NCBI GenBank assembly: GCA_946413265.1
Contig: CAMKJU010000007.1
Coordinates: forward strand, 296-64,295
DNA from: an uncultured Lentisphaerota bacterium
Lineage (GTDB): Bacteria; Verrucomicrobiota; Kiritimatiellia; RFP12; UBA1067
Direction: 5' to 3'
DNA: 64,000 nucleotides
Position 1 is the first letter of the stretch. Every line of letters starts with the position of its first letter. Shown piece by piece: positions 994 to 14,459 of the stretch. Below the pieces are notes generated by a model that did no database searches, was not told the origin of the DNA, and saw only the letters and a program-made list of their open reading frames with translations. The position numbers and the translations under genes are program-made.

Positions 994-2889
994 ATGGAAA
1001 AGAAGTCTATCAAGAAAAACATTCTAATCTCTTATTTCGGATACGAGCATGACCAGCTTGAATACAAGATGCAAGACAGGACATTCCTCGCCTCGTTCGG
1101 AAAAGACGCCAAGGCGAAGGGGTATCTCTCGCGCCTGAGTCCGAAAGACATCAAACGGACTGACATCTGGCGGCCTTCTGTCGCGCTCGCTTCCTACCCT
1201 GATCTGAAGTTCGACGATTACTATCTCCTCTACAGCGGCCTCAGGGGCCCCATGCGGAGAACCTTTGACGAGGTCGTAGAAGACATCAAGGCCCTACGGC
1301 CCAAGGTGAACCTGCACATAGAGGAGATGGCATTCAAATCGCCTTGGGACATGGTGAGCGTGTTCACGAACCTGTATAAGTTTGCCGAAGCCCATGCATC
1401 GGAATTCAGTGCAGAAGGTACCATGTGTTATGTGAACTGCAACCACGGCACAATGCAGATCAGAGAATCCCTTTTCATGCTCAGCCAGGAAGGCAAGATA
1501 CCCGGCATGCGAATATTGCCGTCCCCATGGCACGACAATACAAAACGCGACTATCGAACCCCGGTGGGAAGCTATGCGAAGGACGATCCGTCGGACTTCA
1601 ATGAAGCCTATCGCAAGTTGTCAATAGCCACGAAAAGGCAGGCTAAGAACAACGGGCTCATGGAGGGAATCTTCGTCGACAAGAGCAACACGGAATTCTT
1701 GGAGCTCCTCAACCAGATATTCTTCGTGGCGCAAAGAACAAAGGAACCGATACTCTTCACAGGCCCCACAGGTAGCGGGAAGTCGAACCTCGCCAGGAAC
1801 ATAGCAAAAACAAAGGGATTGAAAGACAAATTCGTATCCGTCAACTGCGCGACATTGGGTGGTGACCCGGGAATCATCAAAAGCGAGCTATTTGGCCACG
1901 ACAGGGGCGACTTCACGGGCGCGATCAGCACGTGCGACGGAAAACTGCAACAGGCCAACGGGGGGATTCTCTTCCTCGACGAGATTGCCGAGCTTCCCCT
2001 CGACTCCCAGGCGATGCTCCTGACGGCCATCGAAACCAAGAAGTTTAGGCGTCCGCATTCGACGGTGGACATACAATGCGACTTCATGCTCATCTGCGGC
2101 ACCAACAAGGATCTGTGGGAAGAAGTCAAGGCCAAGCGGTTCCGCCTGGATCTGCTGGAACGCATCAATACCTGGCATTTCCACCTCCCCGGCCTCGCGG
2201 AAAAAGAACGCCCCGGCTATGCCGCAAGACGGAAAGACATCGCCCTCAATTGCCAGCAAGTATTGAGTGAGTACAATAAAAAGTATTCCTCGCATCTTGA
2301 ATTTGCAAACGACGCATTACAACGTTTCATCGAATATGCAGAAGCCGACACCACCGAGTGGAAAGGCAACTTCCGGGAGTTCAACGCCATGATCTTCAGG
2401 ATGGCGACATTCGCAAACGGTCTTCAGATTGAGCTGAAAGGCGTCGAAAAGGAAATCGAACGCACCGAGTTTGAACTAAAATCATACAAGACCGACAGCA
2501 ACGTTACGGCAATAGCGACCGATGCCCCTCCTGCGGCAACGAAACAAGAGGAATTTCCAACCGCGTCGCAAACCATTAATACGCCCGACCCAACCTCTCC
2601 CCTTCCCGACGCATCCTGCAAATTCGAGTTCCTGCGCGAACTGCTTGGCGAGAAGTACGCCGAGCTCCGCCTGGACGAACTCGCCCAACTTGCCTTCGTC
2701 GCCTCGGTCTGCGCGGACGCGAAGAACCAGGCGGACGCCAGCCGGCGCCTCCGCATCAACCAGAGTGACGCAAAGGACGGTTCCCCACAGCTCTTCAAGT
2801 ACCTGTACCATTTGGGTTTGAACTTCGACAAGGTCAAGTCCTTTGCGCGCGGGTTCAAGCCCTCTGATTCGTCTCAAGTGCGCAGATAG
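994..2889 (+). CDS. rtcR: RtcR-family sigma-54-dependent transcriptional regulator (CARF-like N-domain + AAA+ + C-terminal HTH)
   Basis: AGGAGA RBS 7 nt before the ATG at 994. The N-domain matches the E. coli RtcR pattern (WRPSV..., SPWDMVSVF, NCNHGTMQI). AAA+ Walker A GPTGSGKS, Walker B GGILFLDEI, sigma-54 contact loop GDFTGA (nt 1906-1923). The C-terminal segments WKGNFREFNAMIFRMATFA and ...LFKYLYHLGLNFDKV parallel RtcR WRGNFRELSASVTRMATFA and ...LRKYLARFGLTWEAV. Confidence 0.75.
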   Translation: MEKKSIKKNILISYFGYEHDQLEYKMQDRTFLASFGKDAKAKGYLSRLSPKDIKRTDIWRPSVALASYPDLKFDDYYLLYSGLRGPMRRTFDEVVEDIKALRPKVNLHIEEMAFKSPWDMVSVFTNLYKFAEAHASEFSAEGTMCYVNCNHGTMQIRESLFMLSQEGKIPGMRILPSPWHDNTKRDYRTPVGSYAKDDPSDFNEAYRKLSIATKRQAKNNGLMEGIFVDKSNTEFLELLNQIFFVAQRTKEPILFTGPTGSGKSNLARNIAKTKGLKDKFVSVNCATLGGDPGIIKSELFGHDRGDFTGAISTCDGKLQQANGGILFLDEIAELPLDSQAMLLTAIETKKFRRPHSTVDIQCDFMLICGTNKDLWEEVKAKRFRLDLLERINTWHFHLPGLAEKERPGYAARRKDIALNCQQVLSEYNKKYSSHLEFANDALQRFIEYAEADTTEWKGNFREFNAMIFRMATFANGLQIELKGVEKEIERTEFELKSYKTDSNVTAIATDAPPAATKQEEFPTASQTINTPDPTSPLPDASCKFEFLRELLGEKYAELRLDELAQLAFVASVCADAKNQADASRRLRINQSDAKDGSPQLFKYLYHLGLNFDKVKSFARGFKPSDSSQVRR

Positions 2890-4517
2890 TAGCGCGCGTC
2901 GCCCTTCGATGTTGCACCGAATGGGTGATAGAGTGCCGGACGGAGGCGGGGCAACACATCCGCCAGACATTCATCCGCCGCATGCAGCACCTCCTCAATC
3001 TGCGTCCCGCGTCGGTACTTGTTCGAGGCCTCGTTGTAGCCGAAGTAATCCATCAGCATGGCCAATTCGCCCGGCTTCGGTTCACGACCGTCCGCCGAGA
3101 GCCGGAGGAGTACCATTCCCCGCAGGAGCTCTATGGCAAGCCGCCGGTGCGACAGCGTGTGCCGCCAAATCTGGTCGACGCATACACGCAGATTGACCGA
3201 AAGGGCCGGAACCACCCGGTCGCCGTCACGCAGGAAACAGGAAATCGCCGTCACCCGATCAAGGCTCGTGCCGAAGCCCTTGTTGAGATGGATGGCACAG
3301 GGGGCGGGAACGCCGTCCCAGCAGACCGCATGCGCCGCCTCACGGAAGCGCGCAAGCGCGTCGTAGATGCCTCCGAACTCAGCGTAATACGATTTCTCCT
3401 CGTTCTCGGCCCGCTCAAGGCGCTCGAGCTTACGCGCGAACTTCAGAGGTGCGACCCTCGCCGCACGCCGGAACTCGCTTTTCCGCGCCGCACGATCATT
3501 TTTCTCACGCGCATCCATCCGACGAAGCGTCTCCTTCAGCGTCTGTTCAATCGCCTCCGTGCCGTCCGTCAGCGCCAACCAGCACCCCTGCTGCCACCGG
3601 AAGGCGTTGCGTGGGGGCGCCACGCGCTCGAAGAGGTAGCTCGAATTCGCGCTCTGCACGATGTTGCAGGCCGCCTTCCCGGGGGCGCGACGCAGACCGC
3701 GTCCGCACATCTGGATTGTCGGCAGACGCGAGGCGTCGCGCGCGAAGATGCTTGATACGTCGGGCTGGTCGAATCCCTCCGTGAGCATCGCCACGTTCGC
3801 GACCACCTGCACGCGGCCGCTCGCAAAGGCATCGATCTGGCTCTCCTTGTCGCTCTCGCCCGTCACCACCTCGCACGCCACGCCGCCTGCGGCGAGGCGT
3901 TCGCGAAACGCCACACATTCGGCAATCGTCGAGAAGAACACGAGGCTTTTCCCCCAGCGCTTGGGGTCCGCCAGGTAGAAATCCGCAGCCGTGGCCACGC
4001 TGTAGTTCGGAATGACGTATGTATTGAACGGGCTAAGGTACCCTTCCCGCACGAGGCGGCCGATGGAACACGTGCGCACCGTCTCCTGGAAGGAGAGCTT
4101 CATGCGGTCCGTCCGCATGGGCGTGGCCGAGAGGCCGATCGTCCACCTGGCGCGCATCCGCTCGTAGAGGAGCACGCAGCTCTGTGTCGCCTCATGGTGG
4201 GCCTCGTCGAGGACGACGAGATCCACCTCCGGCGGTACCTTCTCGAAAAGCGAGACGGGGCGGATGTTATCCTGGTAGAGGTCCCGGTTCGCCTCCATCA
4301 TCTGGCGCAGCAGATGATGGCGCGGCGCCACCCAGCCGACCTTGATTGGACGCCCCAGATGCTCCTGGAAACGATGGATCACCTCCAGGGCCATGTACGT
4401 CTTACCCGAGCCGACAGGCGATTCAAGCAGGACGGAGGTGCGTCCCCGTTCCGCGAACGCGGCCAGCGCCTCCTTGATAGCCTCCTGCTGGTAGGGTCTC
4501 TCTTCGTAACGCGTCAC
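2874..4517 (-). CDS. SF2 DEAD/DEAH-box helicase (ResIII + helicase C) with a C-terminal extension of about 230 aa of unknown function
   Basis: GTG start 1 nt after the stop of the upstream gene (TAAgGTG). Motif I SPVGSGKT, motif II VLDEAHH, motif III GLSATP, motif VI QMCGRGLRR. The N-terminal 51 codons of track ORF 2874..4670 are R/S/T-rich overlap and were discarded. Confidence 0.8.
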   Translation of the reverse strand: MTRYEERPYQQEAIKEALAAFAERGRTSVLLESPVGSGKTYMALEVIHRFQEHLGRPIKVGWVAPRHHLLRQMMEANRDLYQDNIRPVSLFEKVPPEVDLVVLDEAHHEATQSCVLLYERMRARWTIGLSATPMRTDRMKLSFQETVRTCSIGRLVREGYLSPFNTYVIPNYSVATAADFYLADPKRWGKSLVFFSTIAECVAFRERLAAGGVACEVVTGESDKESQIDAFASGRVQVVANVAMLTEGFDQPDVSSIFARDASRLPTIQMCGRGLRRAPGKAACNIVQSANSSYLFERVAPPRNAFRWQQGCWLALTDGTEAIEQTLKETLRRMDAREKNDRAARKSEFRRAARVAPLKFARKLERLERAENEEKSYYAEFGGIYDALARFREAAHAVCWDGVPAPCAIHLNKGFGTSLDRVTAISCFLRDGDRVVPALSVNLRVCVDQIWRHTLSHRRLAIELLRGMVLLRLSADGREPKPGELAMLMDYFGYNEASNKYRRGTQIEEVLHAADECLADVLPRLRPALYHPFGATSKGDARYYLRT

Positions 4518-4518
4518 C

Positions 4519-5604
4519 TTACGCGGCCTCCTGCGAGAAGTTGATGCCGCCGAGGTAGAAGTTGCTGGTCCGGACCGCGTTCGGATAGAGGTCCTCGAGG
4601 TCGAAGTCCTTGGACAGCACCGTCCCCGCGAAGGAATGGAGCGTGGATTCGGGCTTGAGCAGCTCCGCATGGTGCGAGGCGAGCTCCGAGGCGAAGTTGA
4701 GGAGGTCGGCCACGCTGCACCCCACGGGCAGGAGCGGACGCTTCTTCTGTCCGATGTTCGTGAGGTCCGTCACGCCGTAGCGTACGCACGGGTTATCGGC
4801 GATTTCGTTCAGCCGCTCGCGGAGGAGCATCTGGTTGCGCGTGTTCGCCACCGAACGGCGGATCAGCCCATCCAGCAGCAAGACCTCGCCCACCGACGCC
4901 TTCGTGCCGGCCGCGGTGCACATGCGTTCCTGCAGCATCTCGACGCCGGACGGGTTGCTGAAGGACGCCAGCAGGCGACGGAAATGCTCGCCGCTGTTGT
5001 CCTTGATTTCCATCTTCGTGCGGAACAGCGGCGCCTCCGCCACTGCGCCGTTCGAGCAAATCTGCCGCCATGTGGCGAGACTCATGTCGGGCATGCCCAC
5101 GCCGTCCACGGGTACGCGACAACGCACGCGCACGTGGTAGGTGCTGTCGTTCGGCACGTCCCACGGGTCGTCGAGGTCGAGCATCGCGCTCAGCATGCCG
5201 TTGCCATATTCGACCTCCTGCAGGCGGCGGTCCTCGTGCAGGACGCCCTCAATGAATTTCACGGGCATGGGCAGGCCCTTGTCCTGCGTCAGACCCAGTG
5301 CCTGGTTCCGTTCCGTATCGACCGTCACGCGGAGCGCCAGATCGGACTCCTTCTCGGCCGCGCGCGTCATCACCTCTAGCGGTGTGAAGAACCCGAACAC
5401 GCCAAAGGGAATCCCCAGTTCGGCGGCAAGGGTCTTGTAGAACCGGTCGCTCAGTTTGTAAGTTGTCTGCCCGATAGAAAGACCTTTAATCTTCTCATCG
5501 TCGCAGTCCAGAGCCTCCACCATACGGCGAGGCGTAATGGGAATCGGCTCAAAACGATCGCCGATTCGCGAATTCATGTCGATTTTTTCTGTTTTTACTG
5601 CCAT
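4519..5604 (-). CDS. DUF932-like (phage/plasmid-like) protein
   Basis: ATG at 5604 with GGAG upstream; the track ORF begins at a TTG at 5655. The segment HVRVRCRVPVDGVGMPDMSLATWRQICSNGAV resembles the DUF932 core (R-x-[IV]-C-x-N-G) as I recall it. Translationally coupled to the helicase. Confidence 0.45.
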   Translation of the reverse strand: MAVKTEKIDMNSRIGDRFEPIPITPRRMVEALDCDDEKIKGLSIGQTTYKLSDRFYKTLAAELGIPFGVFGFFTPLEVMTRAAEKESDLALRVTVDTERNQALGLTQDKGLPMPVKFIEGVLHEDRRLQEVEYGNGMLSAMLDLDDPWDVPNDSTYHVRVRCRVPVDGVGMPDMSLATWRQICSNGAVAEAPLFRTKMEIKDNSGEHFRRLLASFSNPSGVEMLQERMCTAAGTKASVGEVLLLDGLIRRSVANTRNQMLLRERLNEIADNPCVRYGVTDLTNIGQKKRPLLPVGCSVADLLNFASELASHHAELLKPESTLHSFAGTVLSKDFDLEDLYPNAVRTSNFYLGGINFSQEAA

Positions 5605-5683: not shown

Positions 5684-5776
5684 TTGCTTTCGCTATTGGG
5701 AGTTTTGGAGTCTTGGAGTTTTCTTTAAATACTCTCCTTAACTCCGAAACTCCTAATCTCCCAATAGCGAAAGCAA
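5684..5776 (-). repeat. about 95-nt imperfect hairpin element, copy 2
   Basis: On the minus strand it reads TTGCTTTCGCTATTGGGAGATTAGGAGTTTCGGAGTT...AACTCCAAGACTCCAAAACTCCCAATAGCGAAAGCAA. It is collinear with copy 1 and lies between the sigma-54-like gene and the DUF932-like gene. Confidence 0.8.
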
Positions 5777-5797: not shown

Positions 5798-6559
5798 TTA
5801 GGTGAAAACGCTGGCCAAAGGTAGCGAAGCATATCCCCATGACAGACGACAATTCTGGCAATAGGCGTGGATATTCCCCGTGTCTGCCTTTTTCGACGTT
5901 TCTGCCTTCTTAGAACGAAAGTTGGCGCAGAAATCTGACGTAACAAAGCCCGTCTGCGTCATTGTTTTGTGATTCTCTCTAAACGCCGCCGGACTTTCAA
6001 GGGCCTCATCCCCTTCACTCTGCAGCCACTTCGCCACAGCCTCGTAGAACGCAAACTGCTTGCGAACGGCTTCAAGAATCTTGTGTGCCTCCGAATCAAA
6101 ACCATTTGGGCGATATCCCAACAGCGGGTTGCGGGGCGGAATACACGCCCATCGCCCCGATGCCGTCTCGACAATCCTGATCTCGTAGCCACGCAGAATG
6201 GAATCTAGCGGTGATGCCTCCTCGCCGTTCGGTGCCGCATACGCGCCAGAAGAATCGTCCTCATCCCGGATTTCGTCGTCATCAATGAAATCCACCTCCG
6301 AGTCGTAATCCTCCTCGGCAGCATCCGCAATTTCAGTAAAAACTTCTTCTTCCACGTCAGTCTCGACAACGATCTGGAAACTGGCGATCATCGCCTGCAA
6401 AATCTGTACTTGAGTGGCACAATCCGCGCGCAAAAACGTCGATGCCTGTATCCGTGTGGACAGTTCGACCTTGGCTTCCAGCTCATGTCTGGTGGAGACG
6501 TCCATTCGATTGGACTGCTGCATGATTGTCGCCATCTGCAATCCATAACCTAAAGCCAT
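5798..6559 (-). CDS. acidic 253-aa protein, possible divergent or truncated sigma-54 (RpoN)-like factor
   Basis: ATG 2 nt after the RNAP stop (TGActATG). Q/L-rich N-terminus, an acidic tract EEEVFTEIADAAEEDYDSEVDFIDDDEIRDEDD, then segments that by eye parallel sigma-54 region III up to but not including the RpoN box. The upstream part of track ORF 5798..6745 overlaps the RNAP gene and was discarded. Confidence 0.55.
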   Translation of the reverse strand: MALGYGLQMATIMQQSNRMDVSTRHELEAKVELSTRIQASTFLRADCATQVQILQAMIASFQIVVETDVEEEVFTEIADAAEEDYDSEVDFIDDDEIRDEDDSSGAYAAPNGEEASPLDSILRGYEIRIVETASGRWACIPPRNPLLGYRPNGFDSEAHKILEAVRKQFAFYEAVAKWLQSEGDEALESPAAFRENHKTMTQTGFVTSDFCANFRSKKAETSKKADTGNIHAYCQNCRLSWGYASLPLASVFT

Positions 6560-6561
6560 AG

Positions 6562-9500
6562 TCACTCTCCCACTGCGAAACTGTTGAACATCACCTGCGC
6601 CGACGGCGAGGACAGCGGGATGTCCCGCATTTCGCCACTCAGTAATTTCAAGATCGTCTCCTTGTTTGCACGGCGCGCGACCGATTCCATGTCCTTGCCT
6701 TCGTCCACTTTCTTCAACGCGCCGTTGAGGGATTTTGTCCCGCAATCAGCGAGAACGCGCCACAAGAGCTGGACATGCCGCGGATCCAGATCACGGTACG
6801 GAGTTATCGCGCCGTCCTCCCCGCACAGACATTTGTAGAATTCATCGTATGTTTTAGCCTTCTTACCGCTCAGGATGAGCGCGCGCACGAACTCGATGTC
6901 CACTTGGCTCTTCCCCGCATGGGCGCTCTTCATCGAAAGTTGCGTGCCGCGTTCGCCGATCGACTGCGCGGCGATCAATCCCGCCGGATACCCAACTTCT
7001 GGCAAAGTGCCGTCCGACAAAGCCCCGTAGCACGCCGCGCAGATGCCAGTTTCGCAACCACAGTTGAGTATCGAACGCTTGCCGCCATCCGGTGTCTTGC
7101 ACTTCTTGCACGTAATCGTCACTGGACGCAGGGCATAGACAAGACAACGCGTGAGATCGCCCGCCTTGCCGGTGTTGAGCTTCTTGTCGCACATCGAAGC
7201 GCGAGCGTTGAACGACGACCAGAAGATGTCCTCCCACGACATGCCGCCGACGAGCGAGCCCTGAATATCGAATTTCCGTTTCACCTCTTCGGACGGCACA
7301 AACCCCAGCTTGCCGGTCGCAAGTAGACCGCGAGGATTCGTGAACTGTTTGATCTGCTTTGCACCATTTGCCCCTGAGTTGACCATATCCGCCGCGAAAC
7401 CGTTTTTCCCGTCATACACCACAAGGTCGTAGTAACCGAACGAGACGCCCTCTTCCGTACATTTCGCGAACGCCGCACGCGCATCCTTCAAGACGGATTC
7501 GGCTTCGCCCTGTTTACAATGCTCTTCCAATCGCTTCTTCGCGGCACCGGAATCGCGCGCGCAGACGAGATATGCGCCCATCACGAAGTCTCGGTCGTAA
7601 TTCGGGGTGATCTGTCCGTTCCCCGCCGAAAAGAGATTCGCGGACGGCGCCAGACGCGGCAGCGCCTCCTGTGCAGCGTCGGAAAGCGGCAGGTAACCAG
7701 CCATCTCGTCGCCGTCAAAATCGGCCCCGAACCCCTTGCATGAAAGCGGCTGCAAACGGAATACCTCGCCGTCTGCGGGCTTCAGGACCTTTACCTTGAA
7801 GGTCTGCATGCTGTATTTGTGAAGAGACGGCTGACGGTTCATGAGCATCCAAAGCGGATGTTTTTCCAGGTACTCCTTCAGCGCATCCCATTTCTCTGTG
7901 AGCCGTTTTTTCGAGCTTTCCTTAGGCGAGCGCCAGCCGAACCCCGCTGCCGTCACACCATGCGCCGTCACACGCAGGTCCACGCTCTGTGGCTTCCCTT
8001 CGACCTTGATCCGCTCATCGGTGACGCGGTCCGCCAGAAGCTCCCAGAGGATGGACGCCGGAACGCCGACCTCGTCGAACGCGAGATCCGGCCCCGGCGT
8101 GATCACCATACGACACGAACGGTCCACGCGCCGCCCTAGTCCCTCCCGCCTCACGAGCCCGTGTTTCCCGCAGCACGCATCACGCAAAACCTGAAACACG
8201 GTCGCGACAGCCTTCTCGATCTGCGTCAACGCCTTCGCCTTGTCTTCTTCCTTCGCCTTGGCATACCGGTCGCACGCGGCGACAATCTCCCCGTACCCGA
8301 ACGGATCTACCTCGCCTTCGTATCCCACGCGGTACCTGATCGGCAGGACGGGGACGTAGCGCAACTTCGGCTGGTCGTGCAAGTTCTTGCCCGTCAATGC
8401 TTTCGCGGGATAGTCGATCGGCTCCGGCAATTCGATCACGCCCCACTTTTCTTCTTCAGCGCACACGAATGCCTCGTTAAGCGAACCGAACATCGCCGGA
8501 TCGCACACGCCTCCTTCGGCCATCTCGTTTTGCTCATTTGCAGCCTTGAGAAGGAACCGCTCGCCCGGCTTACTCGCACTACACAATTCGCACGGACACA
8601 GCACGAGCGCGTCTCCGATGCTTTCCGCCTGCTTGTCCGACGTCTTGAGGCACATCCTCCGAAGTACCTCGCCCGCATTCACCTTCCTTTTGATGAAACA
8701 ACGCACATCGCCCACGCCGTCAATGCCAAGTGCAGAAGTCTTCACCTCCAACGACAAAGTTGTGGCCGAGCCCCCTTTTGTTCCCCAAATCGGCAGTACC
8801 TCTAGGCAATCCTCCCGACTGGGACAACGGGCGTCTCGCCCGTTGCAGGCACCCGAAACGCGCATCCAATAATTGCCATTGCTTTCTTCCAGCGGTCCCT
8901 TGATCGTTACGCCAAAAAGTGACAGCAACGACGCAAGGCTCAGCGTATTCCGCTTGTCGCCCCCATTCCACGTAAAACGCATTCCACCGAACGCAAGCCG
9001 TGCGGAATCCTTCGGACAGCGGAACTGTGCCGAATGGACCGCCACCGCAGACGCCTTTCCGATTGTCCGACCCTTGCGATCCTGTTCCTCCTTGAGGCCA
9101 ATCCGTTTGAGCAGTTCGTTATCCGACATCCGCGAAAACGACACTGTCTTCTTTTTCGCGTTGACATCCATCCTGATCAGCATGGCCGCAAGATAGGCGG
9201 ACAGGACTTGGGAAAATCCAGTCTGGTCGAGTGCGGGCTTGCCCGTCCCCTTGACGGCGACGGCATCGGAGTTGCGAAGAAGGTCCGCGATGATCGGTTC
9301 CGATCCGGGATAGGCCGAAAGCGCCCACATTTCCATTTCGCCCACGCGCTGTCCGCCGCCAATGAGCCGCCCGTGCGCGGCCTGTCCCGTGGCGCAGGAA
9401 TACAATGCGTCCTTCCCGCCACGACGCGCCTGCGCTTTCAACGCGGGGATGTGGTGGAGGCGGAAGAAATGCTGGTACCCCACCACGACGGGCGATGCCG

Positions 9501-11523
9501 TTGTAACCTTGCGTCCGTCGGGCAGCGTCCAGTGCAGATATGCCTTGCCATATTCGTCGAGTCCCGTCTCTTTGAGCAGACGCTGGACCTTCTCGTGGTC
9601 GAGCGCGCCGCAACATGGCGCACCCGCCGGTCCGGACGCCCCGTCCTTCAGCACGTCCGCATCTGTCTTTCCGTTGTGGAACAACCATCCCAAATGAGTC
9701 TCCAGCAGCTGACCGGGGTTCATGCGCGAGAGGACGCCATGCGGGTTCAAGAGAATGTCAACCGTCACTGTCATGCCATCGGGAAGCTTCAGTTTCGGCA
9801 TTTCCTTCGCAGGCAACACCTTGGAGACGACGCCCTTGTTGCCGTGGCGTCCCATCAACTTGTCACCCGGCTCTAGGGCGAACGTGCGCGCAATGCGGTA
9901 CTCCAGGCGGCCTACGAATCCCGGATCGCGGTTGAGCGGCTTCTCCTTGATTTCAGGCGGGTATTCAATCTGCACGAGCTTCGCGGGGGCGGCGTCGAAA
10001 TACCGGATCGTATGGGTCTGTTCCTTGCCGTTCGCAATCTTCTTGAATTCCGCAATGGCCGTACCCTCACGCAGAGGTGCCCCCGCCGAGAGGATTTTGG
10101 TACACGTCCAGCCCGGATCAATGTCGAGCGCGTAGTCCTTCTCTTCAGTAACGGCCATTTCTTTCACGATTGCGTCGCTCACCACGACCGCGTCGTCGAG
10201 GTTCCAGCCATACCAGGGGATGTACGCGACAAGCAGGTCGCGACCGATCTTCAGCTCGCCGCCGTCCGAGCATGTCGGACACAACCCCGCGCGCTCCAGC
10301 GGGCGCATGAATTCAACAAGCCCCTCTTCGCCGCCAGACATCACGCGCGGCGCTTCCGCCCCGCTCACGGGCACGCCCTGGCGCATGTTCTTCGCGCCCA
10401 TCATGCTGCGCGCGTCGTCGTTGTGGTTCAGGAACGGAATCAGCGACGTGCACCAGCTCACAGGCGGCCGCGATGGTAGGGCCGCCTCGCCGAGGCGGCC
10501 GCTCTTCGCATTAATCTGTCCCTTCGCATCCACCCACGCCCCACGCGCGAGTTGTAGTTGGATGCCCACCATCTCGGACTCGGGGCTCTCGATCGGGCAG
10601 ATTCGTCCTTCAAACGAGGGATGGTTCTGCCGGAATTCGGCGGGCAGGAACCCAACGTGGCTTCGGCTCATCTTGAAGCGCTTGATGCCGCAGATGCGTC
10701 CAGCCGCCTCAAGAATGTTGTCCGGACGGATGACGTCAAACCCGTTGAATCGCCGTTCACCGATCGACGAAATAGGCACAAGCTCCGCAGCCAAATCACT
10801 CCAGCTATCTCGCGTTCCATTCTTCAAGACAAAGAAACGATAGTAGAGTCGAAGAAGGCGATTGCGCAGCCAAACCGGAAACGTCACCGCCATGCGGTGG
10901 TCCAAGTCATCGGCATCAAATGTTTCTATCTTGTCCTGATTCGCCTGCGCCCATTCCTTCAGATCCAAGTTCAGATCTTGCAGCGATGTGGCAAGGCCGC
11001 CCCGGCCTTGCAGCAAGGGCGAGGGCGCCCTTGCCACACCGGGCTTTCCAACCACCTCATTTGCCCACCAATGGGCGAAGGCTATTTCGTACCGGTCAGA
11101 CTTTGAGAGCTTTTCGTCACCGATGCGGATGAAGCGTCCGTCCGGCAACCCCAGACGAAGCTCCAGCTCCTTGCCATTGGGCACGCGCACCTTGCGCAGA
11201 CCCGGCATCTCGCCGAGCCAGGAGCTCCAGACAAGACGCTGGGGCGCGTCCTTGTTTTCGGCGCCGGCGCCGCGCGTCACGAATATGCCATGGTACGGGA
11301 GGGGAATGTCAAACTCTTGCGTGTCGCCGTCCGTAAAGGATATGCAGAACCGCCCCGTGAGGTCCAAGTTCTTCGCATACGCGAATTTCGCATCTTCAGC
11401 AGCGGGGAGGATGAGACTGACCTCATCCACCTCCGACGACACATTCCTGACGCATTCCGTAGCAGAGTTATTCCACGATTCAAGCGTCTCCGCATCGTCG
11501 TCTTTGAACATCAGCCAATTCAT
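6562..11523 (-). CDS. single-chain fused beta-beta' multisubunit-type RNA polymerase (compact, 1653 aa)
   Basis: Beta motifs: GRICPIESPESEMVG, SLIPFLNHNDDARSMMGAKNMRQGVP, GDKLMGRHGNKGVVSK, VDILLNPHGVLSRMNPGQLLETHLG, GGGQRVGEMEMWAL. These are followed by beta' motifs: GRRVDRSCRMVITPGP, NRQPSLHKYSMQ, catalytic GADFDGDEMA (nt 7699-7728), and AAQSIGERGTQLSMKSAH. ATG at 11523; the track uses a TTG at 11529. Confidence 0.9.
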   Translation of the reverse strand: MNWLMFKDDDAETLESWNNSATECVRNVSSEVDEVSLILPAAEDAKFAYAKNLDLTGRFCISFTDGDTQEFDIPLPYHGIFVTRGAGAENKDAPQRLVWSSWLGEMPGLRKVRVPNGKELELRLGLPDGRFIRIGDEKLSKSDRYEIAFAHWWANEVVGKPGVARAPSPLLQGRGGLATSLQDLNLDLKEWAQANQDKIETFDADDLDHRMAVTFPVWLRNRLLRLYYRFFVLKNGTRDSWSDLAAELVPISSIGERRFNGFDVIRPDNILEAAGRICGIKRFKMSRSHVGFLPAEFRQNHPSFEGRICPIESPESEMVGIQLQLARGAWVDAKGQINAKSGRLGEAALPSRPPVSWCTSLIPFLNHNDDARSMMGAKNMRQGVPVSGAEAPRVMSGGEEGLVEFMRPLERAGLCPTCSDGGELKIGRDLLVAYIPWYGWNLDDAVVVSDAIVKEMAVTEEKDYALDIDPGWTCTKILSAGAPLREGTAIAEFKKIANGKEQTHTIRYFDAAPAKLVQIEYPPEIKEKPLNRDPGFVGRLEYRIARTFALEPGDKLMGRHGNKGVVSKVLPAKEMPKLKLPDGMTVTVDILLNPHGVLSRMNPGQLLETHLGWLFHNGKTDADVLKDGASGPAGAPCCGALDHEKVQRLLKETGLDEYGKAYLHWTLPDGRKVTTASPVVVGYQHFFRLHHIPALKAQARRGGKDALYSCATGQAAHGRLIGGGQRVGEMEMWALSAYPGSEPIIADLLRNSDAVAVKGTGKPALDQTGFSQVLSAYLAAMLIRMDVNAKKKTVSFSRMSDNELLKRIGLKEEQDRKGRTIGKASAVAVHSAQFRCPKDSARLAFGGMRFTWNGGDKRNTLSLASLLSLFGVTIKGPLEESNGNYWMRVSGACNGRDARCPSREDCLEVLPIWGTKGGSATTLSLEVKTSALGIDGVGDVRCFIKRKVNAGEVLRRMCLKTSDKQAESIGDALVLCPCELCSASKPGERFLLKAANEQNEMAEGGVCDPAMFGSLNEAFVCAEEEKWGVIELPEPIDYPAKALTGKNLHDQPKLRYVPVLPIRYRVGYEGEVDPFGYGEIVAACDRYAKAKEEDKAKALTQIEKAVATVFQVLRDACCGKHGLVRREGLGRRVDRSCRMVITPGPDLAFDEVGVPASILWELLADRVTDERIKVEGKPQSVDLRVTAHGVTAAGFGWRSPKESSKKRLTEKWDALKEYLEKHPLWMLMNRQPSLHKYSMQTFKVKVLKPADGEVFRLQPLSCKGFGADFDGDEMAGYLPLSDAAQEALPRLAPSANLFSAGNGQITPNYDRDFVMGAYLVCARDSGAAKKRLEEHCKQGEAESVLKDARAAFAKCTEEGVSFGYYDLVVYDGKNGFAADMVNSGANGAKQIKQFTNPRGLLATGKLGFVPSEEVKRKFDIQGSLVGGMSWEDIFWSSFNARASMCDKKLNTGKAGDLTRCLVYALRPVTITCKKCKTPDGGKRSILNCGCETGICAACYGALSDGTLPEVGYPAGLIAAQSIGERGTQLSMKSAHAGKSQVDIEFVRALILSGKKAKTYDEFYKCLCGEDGAITPYRDLDPRHVQLLWRVLADCGTKSLNGALKKVDEGKDMESVARRANKETILKLLSGEMRDIPLSSPSAQVMFNSFAVGE

Positions 11524-11525
11524 GA

Positions 11526-12776
11526 TCAAATCCGTGTCAGCAGTTGGAGCGAACCTACTATTGCACCGAGAACGAAGCCCAGCACCTGGACGGCACAGAG
11601 ATTTTCGGACATGAACTCGTCAAGCGTCTGGTGAAATGTCGCGATGGACATGCCGTCAACAGCTTCCGTGACGCGCTGTTCAAGCCGGAGCTTGTCAAGA
11701 ATCGCCTGCTTGTTCTCGCCGATGAGCTGGGCGACCTTCACGCCGACCTTTGGCAGCACTCCCTTCTCAAGCTTTTCGCGCAGCATGTCAGAGGCGAATG
11801 CACGGTCGATGAGCACGGGAACATTCTCGCGGAGATACGTAGCAATGTAACGCTTGCCGCGCACCCTCATCTCACGGATAATTCCGCCCATCACCTTCTG
11901 TCCCTCTTCGCCTTTCATCCACAGAGTGAGCTGGTCCGCGTATGCGAGAAGCTTCTCCCTCAACATCGTCTGAGTTGCCTCGCGCACCAGCCATCCGTCC
12001 AGCTTGGCCTTCATGCTCTCATAATCGGCAAAGTTTTCCATGACATAGTCCGTAATCGCATTCGCGCCTATGCCAAACGGGATCTTCTCGTTCAGTTTCT
12101 GCCGTAGGAAGGTGCGCAATTCACCGCGCACCTCCTCGATGATTCCGCCCGCGTTTTCACGAAGTGCCTCAACCAGCTTTTCAACTATGAACCGCCGGGA
12201 TCCCTCGCTTTTGATTCGCGGCAGGATTCCCTCGTTCCATATCTTCGACCAGGTATCATCCGTTGCCAGACTGTCAATGACGGCAAGGACCTGACGTTCC
12301 ACGTACGGCGACACGAACTCGACGATCTCGGCTTCATGCTCAACAAGATACCGTTGAATCCAGTCGCGGAGCTGAGTCATCCGCCGCGTGTCGTTCACAA
12401 ACGCCAGCACCTCACCCTTCATCTCCTCGACGAGCGCATCAGGATTCAGAAGTTTCTTCCCGACCATGTTGCCGAGCGAGACGGCCATTTCGCGTTTCTG
12501 CCTCGGGATAATCCCCTGGATGCGTCCGCCAAGATGTGGCTCGTACGGTCTGAACAGATACCAAAGCGCCAGCCAGTTCGTAATGTATCCGACGGCTCCC
12601 GCAAGCAATATCGGCATAAACCAGCCAAGATACCGGTCAATACCCGCCGCCGTCTCCACAGAAATCAGCAGCCGCGCCACCACATATACGACCTCCAGGC
12701 CCAGCACTATCCAGCTGAACCGGTTAAAAAACCTATCCCATGTTTTCCACGCATCCATTTTACTTTTCGTCTTCAT
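11526..12776 (-). CDS. DUF445/UPF0754-family membrane protein
   Basis: GAVGYITNWLALWYLFRPYEPHLGGRIQGIIPRQKREMAVSLGNMV matches the YheB/UPF0754 signature as I recall it. There are N- and C-terminal TM segments. The stop TGA lies 2 nt before the RNAP ATG. The start was chosen at MKTKSK with an AGAGGAAG RBS. Confidence 0.65.
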   Translation of the reverse strand: MKTKSKMDAWKTWDRFFNRFSWIVLGLEVVYVVARLLISVETAAGIDRYLGWFMPILLAGAVGYITNWLALWYLFRPYEPHLGGRIQGIIPRQKREMAVSLGNMVGKKLLNPDALVEEMKGEVLAFVNDTRRMTQLRDWIQRYLVEHEAEIVEFVSPYVERQVLAVIDSLATDDTWSKIWNEGILPRIKSEGSRRFIVEKLVEALRENAGGIIEEVRGELRTFLRQKLNEKIPFGIGANAITDYVMENFADYESMKAKLDGWLVREATQTMLREKLLAYADQLTLWMKGEEGQKVMGGIIREMRVRGKRYIATYLRENVPVLIDRAFASDMLREKLEKGVLPKVGVKVAQLIGENKQAILDKLRLEQRVTEAVDGMSIATFHQTLDEFMSENLCAVQVLGFVLGAIVGSLQLLTRI

Positions 12777-12817
12777 GTTCTTCCTCTTGTGCCACCTTGC
12801 CAAAGCGCAACGCCGAC

Positions 12818-12826
12818 AGTATAGCA
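12818..12826 (-). promoter_or_regulatory. extended -10 promoter candidate (TGCTATACT) for the DUF445-RNAP operon
   Basis: Minus strand TTTTGCTATACT, about 35 nt upstream of the ATG at 12776. The same motif precedes aroE and the DJ-1 gene. Confidence 0.4.
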
Positions 12827-12868
12827 AAAATCGGCTGGCTCATGGGGAGTTTTTCGGCCCGGAAATCT

Positions 12869-13048
12869 TTATGTCCATCCTAGGATTTCCGACAAAGTCG
12901 TAATGCCATAACGCGACTTCAGTTGCGTCCGTACCTTTTCCAGTGCCTTCTTCTCAATCTGCCGCACCCGCTCGCGGGATATACCCAACAATTCAGCGGT
13001 TTCACTCAACGTGTGCGTCACACCATATCCAGTCTTGCTTTCACCCAT
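12869..13048 (-). CDS. stand-alone sigma-70 region-4 (HTH) miniprotein, 59 aa
   Basis: Not in the track (59 aa). AGGAAG RBS before the ATG at 13048. Translation: MGESKTGYGVTHTLSETAELLGISRERVRQIEKKALEKVRTQLKSRYGITTLSEILGWT. The core LSETAELLGISRERVRQIEKKALEKVR is a near-consensus sigma-70 region 4.2. Confidence 0.6.
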   Translation of the reverse strand: MGESKTGYGVTHTLSETAELLGISRERVRQIEKKALEKVRTQLKSRYGITTLSEILGWT

Positions 13049-13284: not shown

Positions 13285-13938
13285 TCACAGCATGCGCAAA
13301 AACGCTTCGCGGCTTGACATCGCCTCTTCCAATTTTCCGGTCCTGCAGAGCGAGACGTAAAACGCCGCAGCAGCAGCCTGGCAGTTGATCTGTCTGTTCG
13401 GATTGAACTCGATGTCAGTGAATGCGTCGAATTCCCTCAGCTCCTCGGCCAGCTTCGGATTGGCGAGCAGCGCCTTGATGTAGAGATGATAGAAGAATGC
13501 CGTCTTCGGCTCGAGATCCCACCGGACTCCATCAAGTTCGAAGGCGAGAAGGCGATGTCCGGCGGACGCTTCCTGGACATGGTGGCCATGGTGGCGGACT
13601 TCACGCGAATCGTGGGAGTAGAGTTCCGGGAACGGGCCAACCCCGCCGTCGAACACCTTGCTCGCCTGAAACACCGACTCCACGGAGCACTCGACTCCGC
13701 CGTGCGGAAACTTCAGGTTGAAGGCGCTCAAACTCACGCCGAGCGGCTGCAGCGACTTGCTTGAAATCTCAAGCACCTTCGCCGACGGATCGATCCTGTG
13801 GATGGCGTCGTGCAGGGCAACGACGTTTTTCTGCTTCTGCGAAAAAGCGAATCCAGGATGCCAAGTGAACTCAGGAGACTCCACGGTCCTGTATCCGACA
13901 TATCTCTCCAACGGTCTGTAACAAGGTCTTTTCGCCAT
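13285..13938 (-). CDS. conserved-looking hypothetical protein (217 aa), function unknown
   Basis: AAGGAA RBS before the ATG at 13938. Non-repetitive sequence with motifs FTWHPGFAFSQKQKNVVALH, SVESVFQASKVF and FTDIEFNPNRQINCQAAAA. I cannot assign a family. Confidence 0.6.
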   Translation of the reverse strand: MAKRPCYRPLERYVGYRTVESPEFTWHPGFAFSQKQKNVVALHDAIHRIDPSAKVLEISSKSLQPLGVSLSAFNLKFPHGGVECSVESVFQASKVFDGGVGPFPELYSHDSREVRHHGHHVQEASAGHRLLAFELDGVRWDLEPKTAFFYHLYIKALLANPKLAEELREFDAFTDIEFNPNRQINCQAAAAAFYVSLCRTGKLEEAMSSREAFLRML

Positions 13939-13992
13939 ACTGTTTTCCTTTCTTTTGTTGTTTGTTCTTGTTGCCTCTGTCAATATTAAACA

Positions 13993-14459
13993 TCAAGGTG
14001 TCGTATTTCTTTCACAGGCGTTGAACATCTGCCAGAGGTTGTTCGCGAGCTGCATGAGCAGGTAGAAGTTCCTGCTGCACCGCCAGTGGTTGCAGAACAC
14101 GTGCTCAAGCCCGTAGTCGTTGTTCTTCTCGACGTCGAAGCTCGACTCAACGTTCCACCTGCGCCGCCCCCATTCCACGACCTCCGACGCCACCTCCGGG
14201 CAGCCGACGTCGTAGTTCGTGGCGAACATCCCGCGGCATGTCCCCCCTTCGTCTCCTCGCAGGCGACGACGTTGAACTCCTCGCCTTCGGACTGGGTCGT
14301 GAACTTCACTCCGCCCGTCCACGCCACGACGCCGGTCTCGGTCTTCCGCTGGTTCTCGCCCCTCGCGACGAGAGGCCCGCAGCAGCCCTTCGAGACCTCC
14401 ATCGAGTCGCACGCCATCTCGTACGCGTCCGGGGAGCGTCCCTCCTTCGGGGAAGTCAA
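13993..14459 (-). pseudogene. IS4/IS701-type DDE transposase remnant (C-terminal fragment, frameshifted)
   Basis: ...EVVEWGRRRWNVESSFDVEKNNDYGLEHVFCNHWRCSRNFYLLMQLANNLWQMF is a typical DDE_Tnp C-terminus. The upstream part continues in another frame (track ORFs 13993..14412 and 13986..14459). No N-terminal half and no inverted repeats were seen. Confidence 0.6.

Follow-up and report, generated by a model that had tools for sequence, protein, structure and literature searches.

RtcR of Escherichia coli and Salmonella is an activator made of a CARF, an AAA+ and a helix-turn-helix (HTH) domain, and acts on the sigma-54 promoter of rtcBA (Hughes et al. 2020, PMC7790460; Kotta-Loizou et al. 2022, PMC9650030). 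RtcR-like proteins of the same CARF-AAA+-HTH architecture, unlinked to Rtc genes and tied to restriction-modification (R-M) systems, have been described (Makarova et al. 2014, PMC4012209), and RtcR homologs head Type II CoCoNuT and restriction superoperons (Bell et al. 2024, PMC11090510). In the light of these two studies, rewiring of the sensor is an event of a known kind. Defence loci gated by sigma factors are also on record, as DdvS, the extracytoplasmic function (ECF) sigma factor of a CBASS-CRISPR island (PMC11506125), and the ECF-like sigma system CalpL-CalpT-CalpS (bioRxiv 10.1101/2024.05.08.593097). The gene analyzed here encodes an RtcR-like protein of 631 aa, and resides in a 64,000-nt stretch of DNA (the window) from an uncultured Lentisphaerota bacterium. 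The window corresponds to positions 296-64295 of contig C7 of this genome (G000); C7 starts 295 nt ahead of it. The gene is a paralog of the canonical rtcR of the same genome, and probably encodes a dedicated sigma-54-type sensor-activator of a helicase/ATPase cassette, acting through host sigma-54.

The window protein resembles RtcR in the three domains, in an alignment spanning the full-length model, in an L1 loop containing F and T, in the presence of rpoN in the genome, and in a -24/-12 element next to the gene. It differs in being about 100 residues longer (owing to an insertion within the CARF domain and a linker rich in P and T), in score (386 vs 650 bits), in falling outside the canonical clade, in having no linkage to rtcB or rtcA, and in coexisting with a canonical RtcR. 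Its neighbours are a helicase, a 361-aa protein (unk361), an AAA+ ATPase, sigma factors and a fused RNA polymerase (RNAP). As in RtcR_PspF and CoCoNuT systems, the sensor-activator is detached from Rtc and joined to accessory genes of the defence-island type, and sigma-54 promoters head the targets; an example is the island in locus L029, which features five perfect sites and a PspF2-like activator. In contrast, the output genes belong neither to McrBC/CoCoNuT or R-M systems nor to any system named in PADLOC, and no McrBC or CoCoNuT components (CnuH included) were found in PADLOC and Pfam scans of all neighbours. The CoCoNuT regulator heads a superoperon laid on one strand, whereas the regulator is here convergent with part of the cassette, which carries its own sigma factors and fused RNAP. 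With the sigma-gated loci the cassette shares sigma-70-family factors of its own, one of which (geneX) is ECF-like; its RpoD-like sigma factor scores 195-317 bits against the NCBIfam and PADLOC MzaA sigma-70 models. Unlike those loci, it features no other Mza, CBASS or Calp components, and has a sigma-54 activator on top of the sigma genes. What is new is the output cassette, its arrangement around the regulator in two gene orders, the presence of a canonical RtcR in the same genome, and the association with additional sigma factors and a fused RNAP.

The regulator gene

The regulator and the motifs recognized in it are listed below.

811-819, + strand: extended -10-like promoter TGATACAAT of the rtcR-like gene, read from the sequence, predicted function
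994-2889, + strand: RtcR-like enhancer-binding protein, 631 aa; intact open reading frame (ORF), alternative ATG at 955, ATG at 994 adopted
1147-1542, + strand: RtcR-type CARF-like sensor domain, residues 52-183 (Pfam PF06956)
1690-2178, + strand: sigma-54-interaction AAA+ domain (PF00158 and motif coordinates)
1762-1785, + strand: Walker A, GPTGSGKS, read in the regulator ORF
1906-1923, + strand: L1 loop, GDFTGA, residues 305-310, read in the regulator ORF
1969-1983, + strand: Walker B, LFLDE, read in the regulator ORF
2627-2838, + strand: C-terminal RtcR-type HTH, about residues 545-615 (end of the NF038308 match, and HTH of the genome's own canonical RtcR)

The CARF-like, AAA+ and HTH regions had been recognized in the original prediction by eye, and all three are borne out by profile searches. 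Pfam detects the RtcR domain PF06956 in residues 52-183 (65.7 bits, cut-off 23.1), and Sigma54_activat (PF00158, 145 bits) in residues 233-395, along with AAA_lid_14. The alignment to the NCBIfam RtcR model NF038308 runs from position 20 to 528 of 530, C-terminal HTH included. The score of this match, 386 bits, is below the 650-bit equivalog cut-off. The PADLOC model RtcR--CARF_AAA_HTH gives 374 bits. As judged by eye, ILISYFGYEHDQL, located upstream of the PF06956 match, is the probable first beta-strand of the CARF-like domain. The GDFTGA motif resides exactly where it had been placed (1906-1923); relative to GAFTGA, Phe and Thr are retained and Ala is changed to Asp. A low-complexity linker rich in P, T and A, missing from canonical RtcR, precedes the HTH. 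At least 10 loci, at 43-99% identity, carry an intact ORF. The TGATACAAT element is found also in L012, a locus lacking the hairpin inserted in the 5' untranslated region (UTR).

The protein had been regarded as an orphan regulator, with no rtcB or rtcA in the window. The second statement stands, as tblastn found no RtcB-like sequence in the window (E >= 0.8). The first does not. The genome contains one rtcB, located on contig C49, where a canonical rtcR is divergently oriented; the CARF domain of this RtcR scores 229 bits, and TTGGCACgatatCTGCT, a sigma-54 promoter, lies between the two genes. One full rpoN, encoding the sigma-54 on which enhancer-binding proteins depend, is found on contig C40. 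The genome-wide search called for earlier thus yielded single rpoN and rtcB genes, and rtcA was not found in the genome. Because a canonical rtcR-rtcB locus with TTGGCACgatatCTGCT is present, the window gene is an extra copy, a paralog, and not an orphan left behind by gene loss. Eight sigma-54 activator loci were counted in the genome by tblastn. The C49 locus (L005:6037-11183) features, in order, rtcR, the sigma-54 promoter, a small ORF, rtcB and another sigma-54 activator gene. The rtcR-rtcB spacer is flanked by long periodic inverted repeats, which belong to families of repetitive extragenic palindrome (REP)-like elements other than the one described below.

Homologs retrieved in database searches were all from Kiritimatiellae, Lentisphaerae or Victivallales, and could be sorted into a long-form group of 600-650 aa, scoring 441 bits or more, and canonical RtcRs of 520-530 aa, scoring 341 bits or less. 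In the maximum-likelihood tree, canonical RtcRs of the PVC bacteria, including the C49 copy, form a 100/100 clade from which the window protein is excluded. Outside this clade are clades 1a and 1b, which comprise the window protein and its relatives, clade 2 (P0043, P0057, P0073), and a variant found in L017. The Phe of the L1 loop is generally kept in clade 1, where the motif reads GDFTGA, GDYTGA, NAFSGA or SAFTGA; the L017 protein, a clade-3 variant, has GFPNAN. Sister regulators devoid of this Phe and tied to the helicase pair map at L017:14423-16030, L031:10001-11974 and L032:5673-7445.

The helicase cassette

Neighbourhoods were collected from five long-form homologs and from 19 genome loci reached through unk361. 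The genes which surround the regulator in the window are the following.

1-670, - strand: geneX, divergent ECF-like sigma-70-family protein, 250 aa (C7:213-965; the last 83 nt are outside the window)
2874-4535, - strand: superfamily 2 (SF2; ResIII/DEAD-type) helicase, about 553 aa (Pfam ResIII, DEAD, Helicase_C)
4519-5604, - strand: unk361, 361 aa, unknown fold, always directly upstream of the helicase

The paralog lineage adjoins the unk361-helicase pair in 15 of 15 related loci. The clade-1 regulator is convergent on the helicase operon in 12 loci (L006-L015, L019, L020, L022), and the same holds for the clade-3 variant in L017. The 3' ends of regulator and helicase genes touch or overlap in every clade-1 locus in which the helicase is the last gene; in the window they share 16 nt. 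In clade 2 (L031, L032) the regulator is instead divergent from a geneX-like gene (225 aa), followed by unk361 (69% identity) and helicase (61%). Proteins of the pair are 75-90% identical (helicase 75-85%) in loci in which the regulator is only 43-73% identical. No rtcB or rtcA is found among the gene calls of the seven loci reached through the regulator, and in the remaining loci tblastn detects cassette genes only. The view that the regulator is wired to an output other than rtcBA is therefore upheld by the canonical pair on C49, the position of the lineage outside the canonical clade, and the constant unk361-helicase linkage.

No match to unk361 was found in Pfam, NCBIfam, PHROG or PADLOC, nor among PDB sequences (best E 0.21); its AlphaFold2 (AF2) model (pLDDT 72.9) has no PDB fold match (best E 0.25). 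A large protein collection holds 300 unk361 protein clusters, and among the 120 listed none features a Pfam domain. The gene is present in two of 301 genomes sampled from the class, and in 19 species genomes, all gut or rumen metagenome-assembled genomes (MAGs). Its presence in two of 301 genomes denotes that the cassette is not a conserved housekeeping locus. The protein is highly constrained, being 80-91% identical between loci whose regulators share only 43% identity, and relatives were detected only among about 300 gut/rumen sequences. The label 'DUF932-like', considered for unk361, receives no support from Pfam and was dropped. The helicase matches generic SF2 models only; its C-terminal part has no assignment, and a match to PbeA covers about 90 residues only.

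GeneX, the RpoD-like sigma-70, the fused RNAP with a 253-aa protein, and a double-AAA+ ATPase (AAA727) with a 97-aa partner are frequent companions of the pair. The geneX family alignment (A5) matches an ECF sigma factor of this genome in regions 2 and 4 (hhalign probability 95.7%, E 9e-9). Homologs were identified by tblastn in L006, L010, L012-15, L017, L019 and L022; the geneX genes of L024, L031 and L032 are joined to the family by mutual blastp links, links to L010, and alignment A5. GeneX is the first gene behind the sigma-54 promoter in L024, L031 and L032, and lies directly upstream of the fused RNAP in L022. AAA727 matches IetA over one AAA+ domain only (138 bits); the copy of this genome, on contig C101, is 86% identical to the L007 protein. 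The RpoD-like sigma-70 (373 bits against the RpoD model) is located either before unk361 or after the helicase. It is missing in this genome, in which the housekeeping rpoD is on C18.

Overall, the regulator represents a lineage separate from canonical RtcR, and belongs to a rare accessory cassette of rumen/gut Kiritimatiellae and Victivallales, made by an unk361-SF2 helicase core and, as usual companions, geneX and AAA727 with the 97-aa partner.

Sigma-54 promoters

The absence of TGGCAC-N5-TTGC from the locus, reported in the original prediction, is confirmed. No convincing site was found; matches with up to two mismatches are fewer than in shuffled sequences, and none lies in an intergenic spacer on the right strand within the locus. 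Similarly, no -24/-12 promoter was found in the window before unk361, the RNAP operon or geneX. A TGGTAC-N5-TTGCT site is present at the end of C101, within CCAATGGTACagttaTTGCTT / CCAATGGTACagttaTTGCTTTTAGAG, and is followed by the 97-aa ORF and then by AAA727. Since in L012, L013 and L014 (90-98% identity) sequences corresponding to the C101 end and to C7 position 62 are found on single contigs, separated by 33 nt, C101 should adjoin C7 also in this genome. By the contigs of these relatives, the site maps about 330 nt outside the window start, and AAA727, the 97-aa gene and the promoter almost certainly precede geneX and the rtcR-like gene. The resulting order is AAA727, 97-aa gene, sigma-54 promoter and geneX, transcribed leftward; the rtcR-like gene, transcribed rightward; and helicase, unk361, 253-aa protein, RNAP, DUF445 and 59-aa genes, again leftward. 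An rtcBA operon with a sigma-54 promoter just beyond the window start would have refuted the original reading; a promoter is there, but drives the 97-aa/AAA+ ATPase operon and not rtcBA. Along the same line, the RNAP/helicase operon, regarded as the only plausible target, is indeed convergent to the regulator, but geneX had been missed, and the promoter past the contig end could not be seen.

Sites of this type recur in diverged relatives. The clade-2 spacers of L031 and L032 contain perfect TTGGCAC-N5-TTGCTA sites (CCTTGGCACggcttTTGCTAAT and CTTTGGCACgcttcTTGCTATA), about 75 nt ahead of the first ATG. In L007, L008 and L022 the regulator and the 97-aa/AAA727 operon are transcribed divergently, and the spacer between them carries CGGCACgttctCTGCT; the site has the form CGGCAC-N5-CTGCT in L007/L022. 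In L012-L014 (CGTTGGTACagttaTTGCTT) and L015 (TTGGTATagttaATGCT) the site is in front of the 97-aa/AAA727 operon, just downstream of geneX. The L012 site fits the extended consensus of the strongest sigma-54 promoters of the genome under study, such as CGTTGGCACGGTTATTGCTTGTA on C12. The promoter had been suspected to be non-canonical, which is at odds with the ordinary -24/-12 elements in L031, L032 and L007/L022, and with TGGTAC-N5-TTGCT at the C101 end. Two sequences are candidate upstream activator sites. One is the palindrome CTATACtttaGTATAG (CTATAC-N4-GTATAG, C7:146-161), unique in the genome and located about 135 nt upstream of the promoter, as measured in L012; the other is TGCAATAnnATTGTTGA, a conserved block found about 75 nt upstream of the clade-2 promoter.

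Distant cassettes lacking this regulator also feature sigma-54 promoters. A canonical promoter is found directly before unk361 in L018 (TTGGCACatattCTGCT) and L029. In L023, a PspF2-like activator gene is followed by TGGCACgctttCTGCA, and then by unk361, helicase and RmuC genes. In L024, TGGCATgccttCTGCT precedes geneX, p84, AAA727, unk361 and helicase in one gene string, which ties the modules of the cassette together.

L029 is a Kiritimatiellae defence island comprising PIF1, the unk361-helicase pair, two GmrSD, PLD, RhuM/Fic, and an RtcR_PspF2-like activator. Five near-identical perfect sigma-54 promoters (TTGGCACg.a..TTGCT) are found at positions 3270, 6064, 8009, 9815 and 20759, and the entire island is run as one sigma-54 regulon. 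In the genome under study, a second AAA727-type ATPase, 50% identical, is encoded on C89 (11559-13745, - strand). TTGGCATgaaatCTGCT lies about 15 nt before its ATG, which implies a leaderless or very short-leader sigma-54 transcript.

Proposed role of the regulator

What the sequences show directly is the domain content of the regulator, its paralogy, its conserved linkage, and where promoters are located. The signal, the DNA site and the mode of activation are inferred by analogy with RtcR, and the biological role is probably defence-like. The CARF-like domain would keep the AAA+ domain inactive until a nucleic-acid signal derived from stress or infection is bound. The signal-bound regulator would assemble into a ring, and the HTH would bind an upstream site. 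The GDFTGA loop would then contact sigma-54, and ATP would be used to open the -24/-12 promoter bound by the host sigma-54 holoenzyme. The most likely target in this genome is TGGTAC-N5-TTGCT before the 97-aa/AAA+ ATPase operon on C101; in clade 2 the target would be the geneX-unk361-helicase operon.

Context suggests a defence-like role of the cassette: its distribution is patchy, L029 and L023 place it among defence-type genes, the window contains a DarT1-associated NADAR gene, and CARF/sigma-54 activators are in use. Defence-type neighbours are GmrSD, PLD and PIF1 in L029, RmuC in L023 and NADAR in the window. No cassette protein has a full-length PADLOC match to a named defence system, and unk361, geneX and the 97-aa protein have no match at all.

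Several findings weigh against activation of the cassette through host sigma-54. The C101-C7 junction is deduced from relatives, being unassembled in this genome. Sites reaching the promoter score of 19/21 are not rare genome-wide (235 in the genome, about 310 in shuffled sequences). Genome-wide significance of the score was consequently dropped, and, as score-19 sites are no rarer than in shuffles, the promoter case rests on position, extended similarity and recurrence in diverged lineages. Only decayed versions of the promoter, with the GC of the -12 element changed to TA or GT, are found in L009, L010/L017 and L020. In L006, L019 and L011 there is no ATPase operon within 10 kb. In the window lineage, unk361 is preceded by a conserved A-rich, -10-like block, TTCAGAAAAC/T (TTCAAAAAAATTCAGAAAAC), and not by a -24/-12 element. 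In clade 2, GTHSTA replaces GAFTGA and the canonical Phe is lost. The latter is a mismatch, as clade-2 genes lie beside perfect sigma-54 promoters.

The fused RNAP and alternative readings

Further genes, encoded upstream of unk361 on the same strand, are the following.

5798-6559, - strand: acidic protein, 253 aa, encoded directly after the fused RNAP; no family match
6562-11529, - strand: fused beta-beta' RNAP, 1655 aa (Pfam Rpb2_6, Rpb2_7, Rpb2_3, Rpb1_2 and Rpb1_5 in one ORF)
11526-12827, - strand: DUF445 membrane protein, first long gene of the RNAP operon (PF04286, 84 bits)
12869-13048, - strand: 59-aa ORF, sigma-70 region 4-like by eye from ELLGISRERVRQIEKKALEKV, heading the DUF445-RNAP operon

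The 59-aa ORF is preceded by TGTGAAAAT, an extended -10-like element, and not by a -24/-12 element; in L015, L017 and L022 TGnTAAAAT is found directly ahead of the RNAP gene. The 253-aa protein has no Pfam match at E up to 10, and no other family match; its AF2 model (pLDDT 40) is too poor for a fold search. A likeness to sigma-54 was looked for and not detected, comparison with the genome's own RpoN by hhalign giving a probability of 0.07.

The presence of this operon raises the alternative that the regulator is an ATP-driven switch of private transcription, which would remodel a complex of the fused RNAP with the 253-aa protein, and would not act on the host sigma-54 holoenzyme; the promoters would be non-canonical, the conserved block ahead of unk361 being one example. 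We consider this unlikely. A genome-level correlation between regulator and 253-aa protein is real, and keeps a sigma-54-like partner, as originally proposed, in play. When this genome and the 19 found via unk361 are compared, seven (G000, G301, G303, G304, G308, G310, G311) encode both the long-form regulator and the 253-aa protein, nine, all with distant cassettes, encode neither, and four are discordant. The regulator only is found in G302, in which the contig is short at the locus, and in G309, which has no excuse beyond MAG incompleteness; the 253-aa protein only in G305 (short contig) and G306 (variant regulator). The genes are adjacent in the window, L007, L010, L012, L014, L015 and L022, and about 6 kb apart in L009; in L017 the RNAP lies beside the clade-3 variant regulator, and in L016 RNAP and acidic protein genes accompany the unk361-helicase pair, the contig stopping ahead of any regulator. 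Furthermore, cassettes with RNAP have no -24/-12 element before unk361 while most cassettes devoid of RNAP have one, and the RNAP-linked clade retains the L1 Phe. Against a private polymerase, the 253-aa protein lacks detectable sigma-54 similarity in the two comparisons reported above, and TGnTAAAAT/GAAAAT extended -10-like elements at the starts of the RNAP, unk361 or sigma-70 operons suggest initiation of the sigma-70 type. Sister-clade regulators adjoin perfect host-type sigma-54 promoters. In addition, L006, L011, L019 and L020 contain regulator and unk361-helicase-sigma70 genes and no RNAP within 10 kb, and no copy at all is present in G309.

In a broader version, the RtcR-like protein would sense infection or stress and serve as the ATPase switch of an autonomous transcription kit that moves horizontally, acting on a partner other than sigma-54. 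The kit would consist of the fused RNAP, the small acidic protein as initiation factor, the ECF-like sigma, the RpoD-like sigma and the region-4 mini-protein. This version is improbable; were it true, helicase and AAA+ effectors would be expressed from private promoters while the cell's own RNA polymerase is inhibited or hijacked.

It is similarly doubtful that the regulator works independently of sigma-54, whether as a repressor, as an activator of the sigma-70 type (TyrR and PexR being examples) or as a decaying copy, binding DNA via the HTH and using CARF and ATPase domains for sensing only. The non-consensus L1 loop (GDFTGA), the disappearance of the motif in clade 2 (GTHSTA) and L017 (GFPNAN), the sigma-70-like elements at the cassette operons of this lineage, and an internal TAG in the G309 copy speak for it. 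However, clade 1 has preserved the sigma-54 interaction domain, including L1 Phe/Thr and Walker A and B, -24/-12 elements are found repeatedly next to the regulator gene, in three arrangements, and the ORF stays open in the diverged loci mentioned above.

A second RNA-repair regulator, acting in trans on the C49 rtcB promoter or sharing the regulon of canonical RtcR, would fit the RtcR architecture and RtcR-type HTH, and the lack of rtcA, which makes the Rtc system of this genome atypical, but is very hard to reconcile with an rtcB locus already served by its own divergent RtcR, with paralog lineages outside the 100/100 canonical clade, with the lack of rtcB and rtcA among the gene calls of the seven loci reached through the regulator (and cassette genes only, by tblastn, in the others), and with the constant helicase linkage.

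Repeats and other elements

Two hairpins in the window belong to one genome-wide family.

840-941, no strand assigned: REP-like GGAG/CTCC hairpin, in the 5' UTR of the rtcR-like gene
5684-5776, no strand assigned: second REP-like hairpin of the same family, between the RNAP operon and unk361

The GGAG/CTCC family is REP/MITE-like, has the clamp TTGCTTTCGCT...AGCGAAAGCAA, and is present in this genome as 64 paired copies, spread over 58 contigs. Both hairpins were considered as activator sites or operon punctuation, and rejected in view of the 64 genomic copies and of the absence of the 5' UTR copy in L012. A further copy at the very start of C7 coincides with the assembly break, and probably caused it.

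A small, palindrome-containing block, TTTTGCGTCTG(C/T)AAT, marks loci of the clade-1b type, ahead of the cassette sigma-70, 97-aa and geneX-homolog genes (L006:16164-16284; L009:15768-16059 and 9624-9800; L011:16182-16676; L020, upstream of 15508), and may be an operator or promoter element. The TTGCGTCTGCAA block, found in L006, L009, L011 and L020 in front of the sigma-70, 97-aa and geneX-homolog genes, was rejected as a -12 element because its distance from any GG varies between 10 and 14 nt; an operator, or a portion of an extended -10 promoter, is accordingly the more likely identity.

The island is adjoined in the window by a gene for a DarT1-associated NADAR antitoxin (13285-13983, - strand; Pfam, 239 bits). 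No family match was found for the 157-aa ORF next to it (13986-14459).

Significance

RtcR-type CARF activators are emerging as general switches which sense damage or infection and control operons beyond RNA repair. The present case adds an output absent from curated libraries, made by unk361 and the SF2 helicase, the double-AAA+ ATPase and the ECF-like sigma, in a cassette confined to gut and rumen Kiritimatiellae and Victivallales. Since promoters can be read from the sequence and candidate activator sites are available, the wiring lends itself to direct tests in E. coli. Should the genome-level coupling to the fused RNAP prove functional, this would give a first indication that an enhancer-binding protein can serve a non-canonical polymerase.

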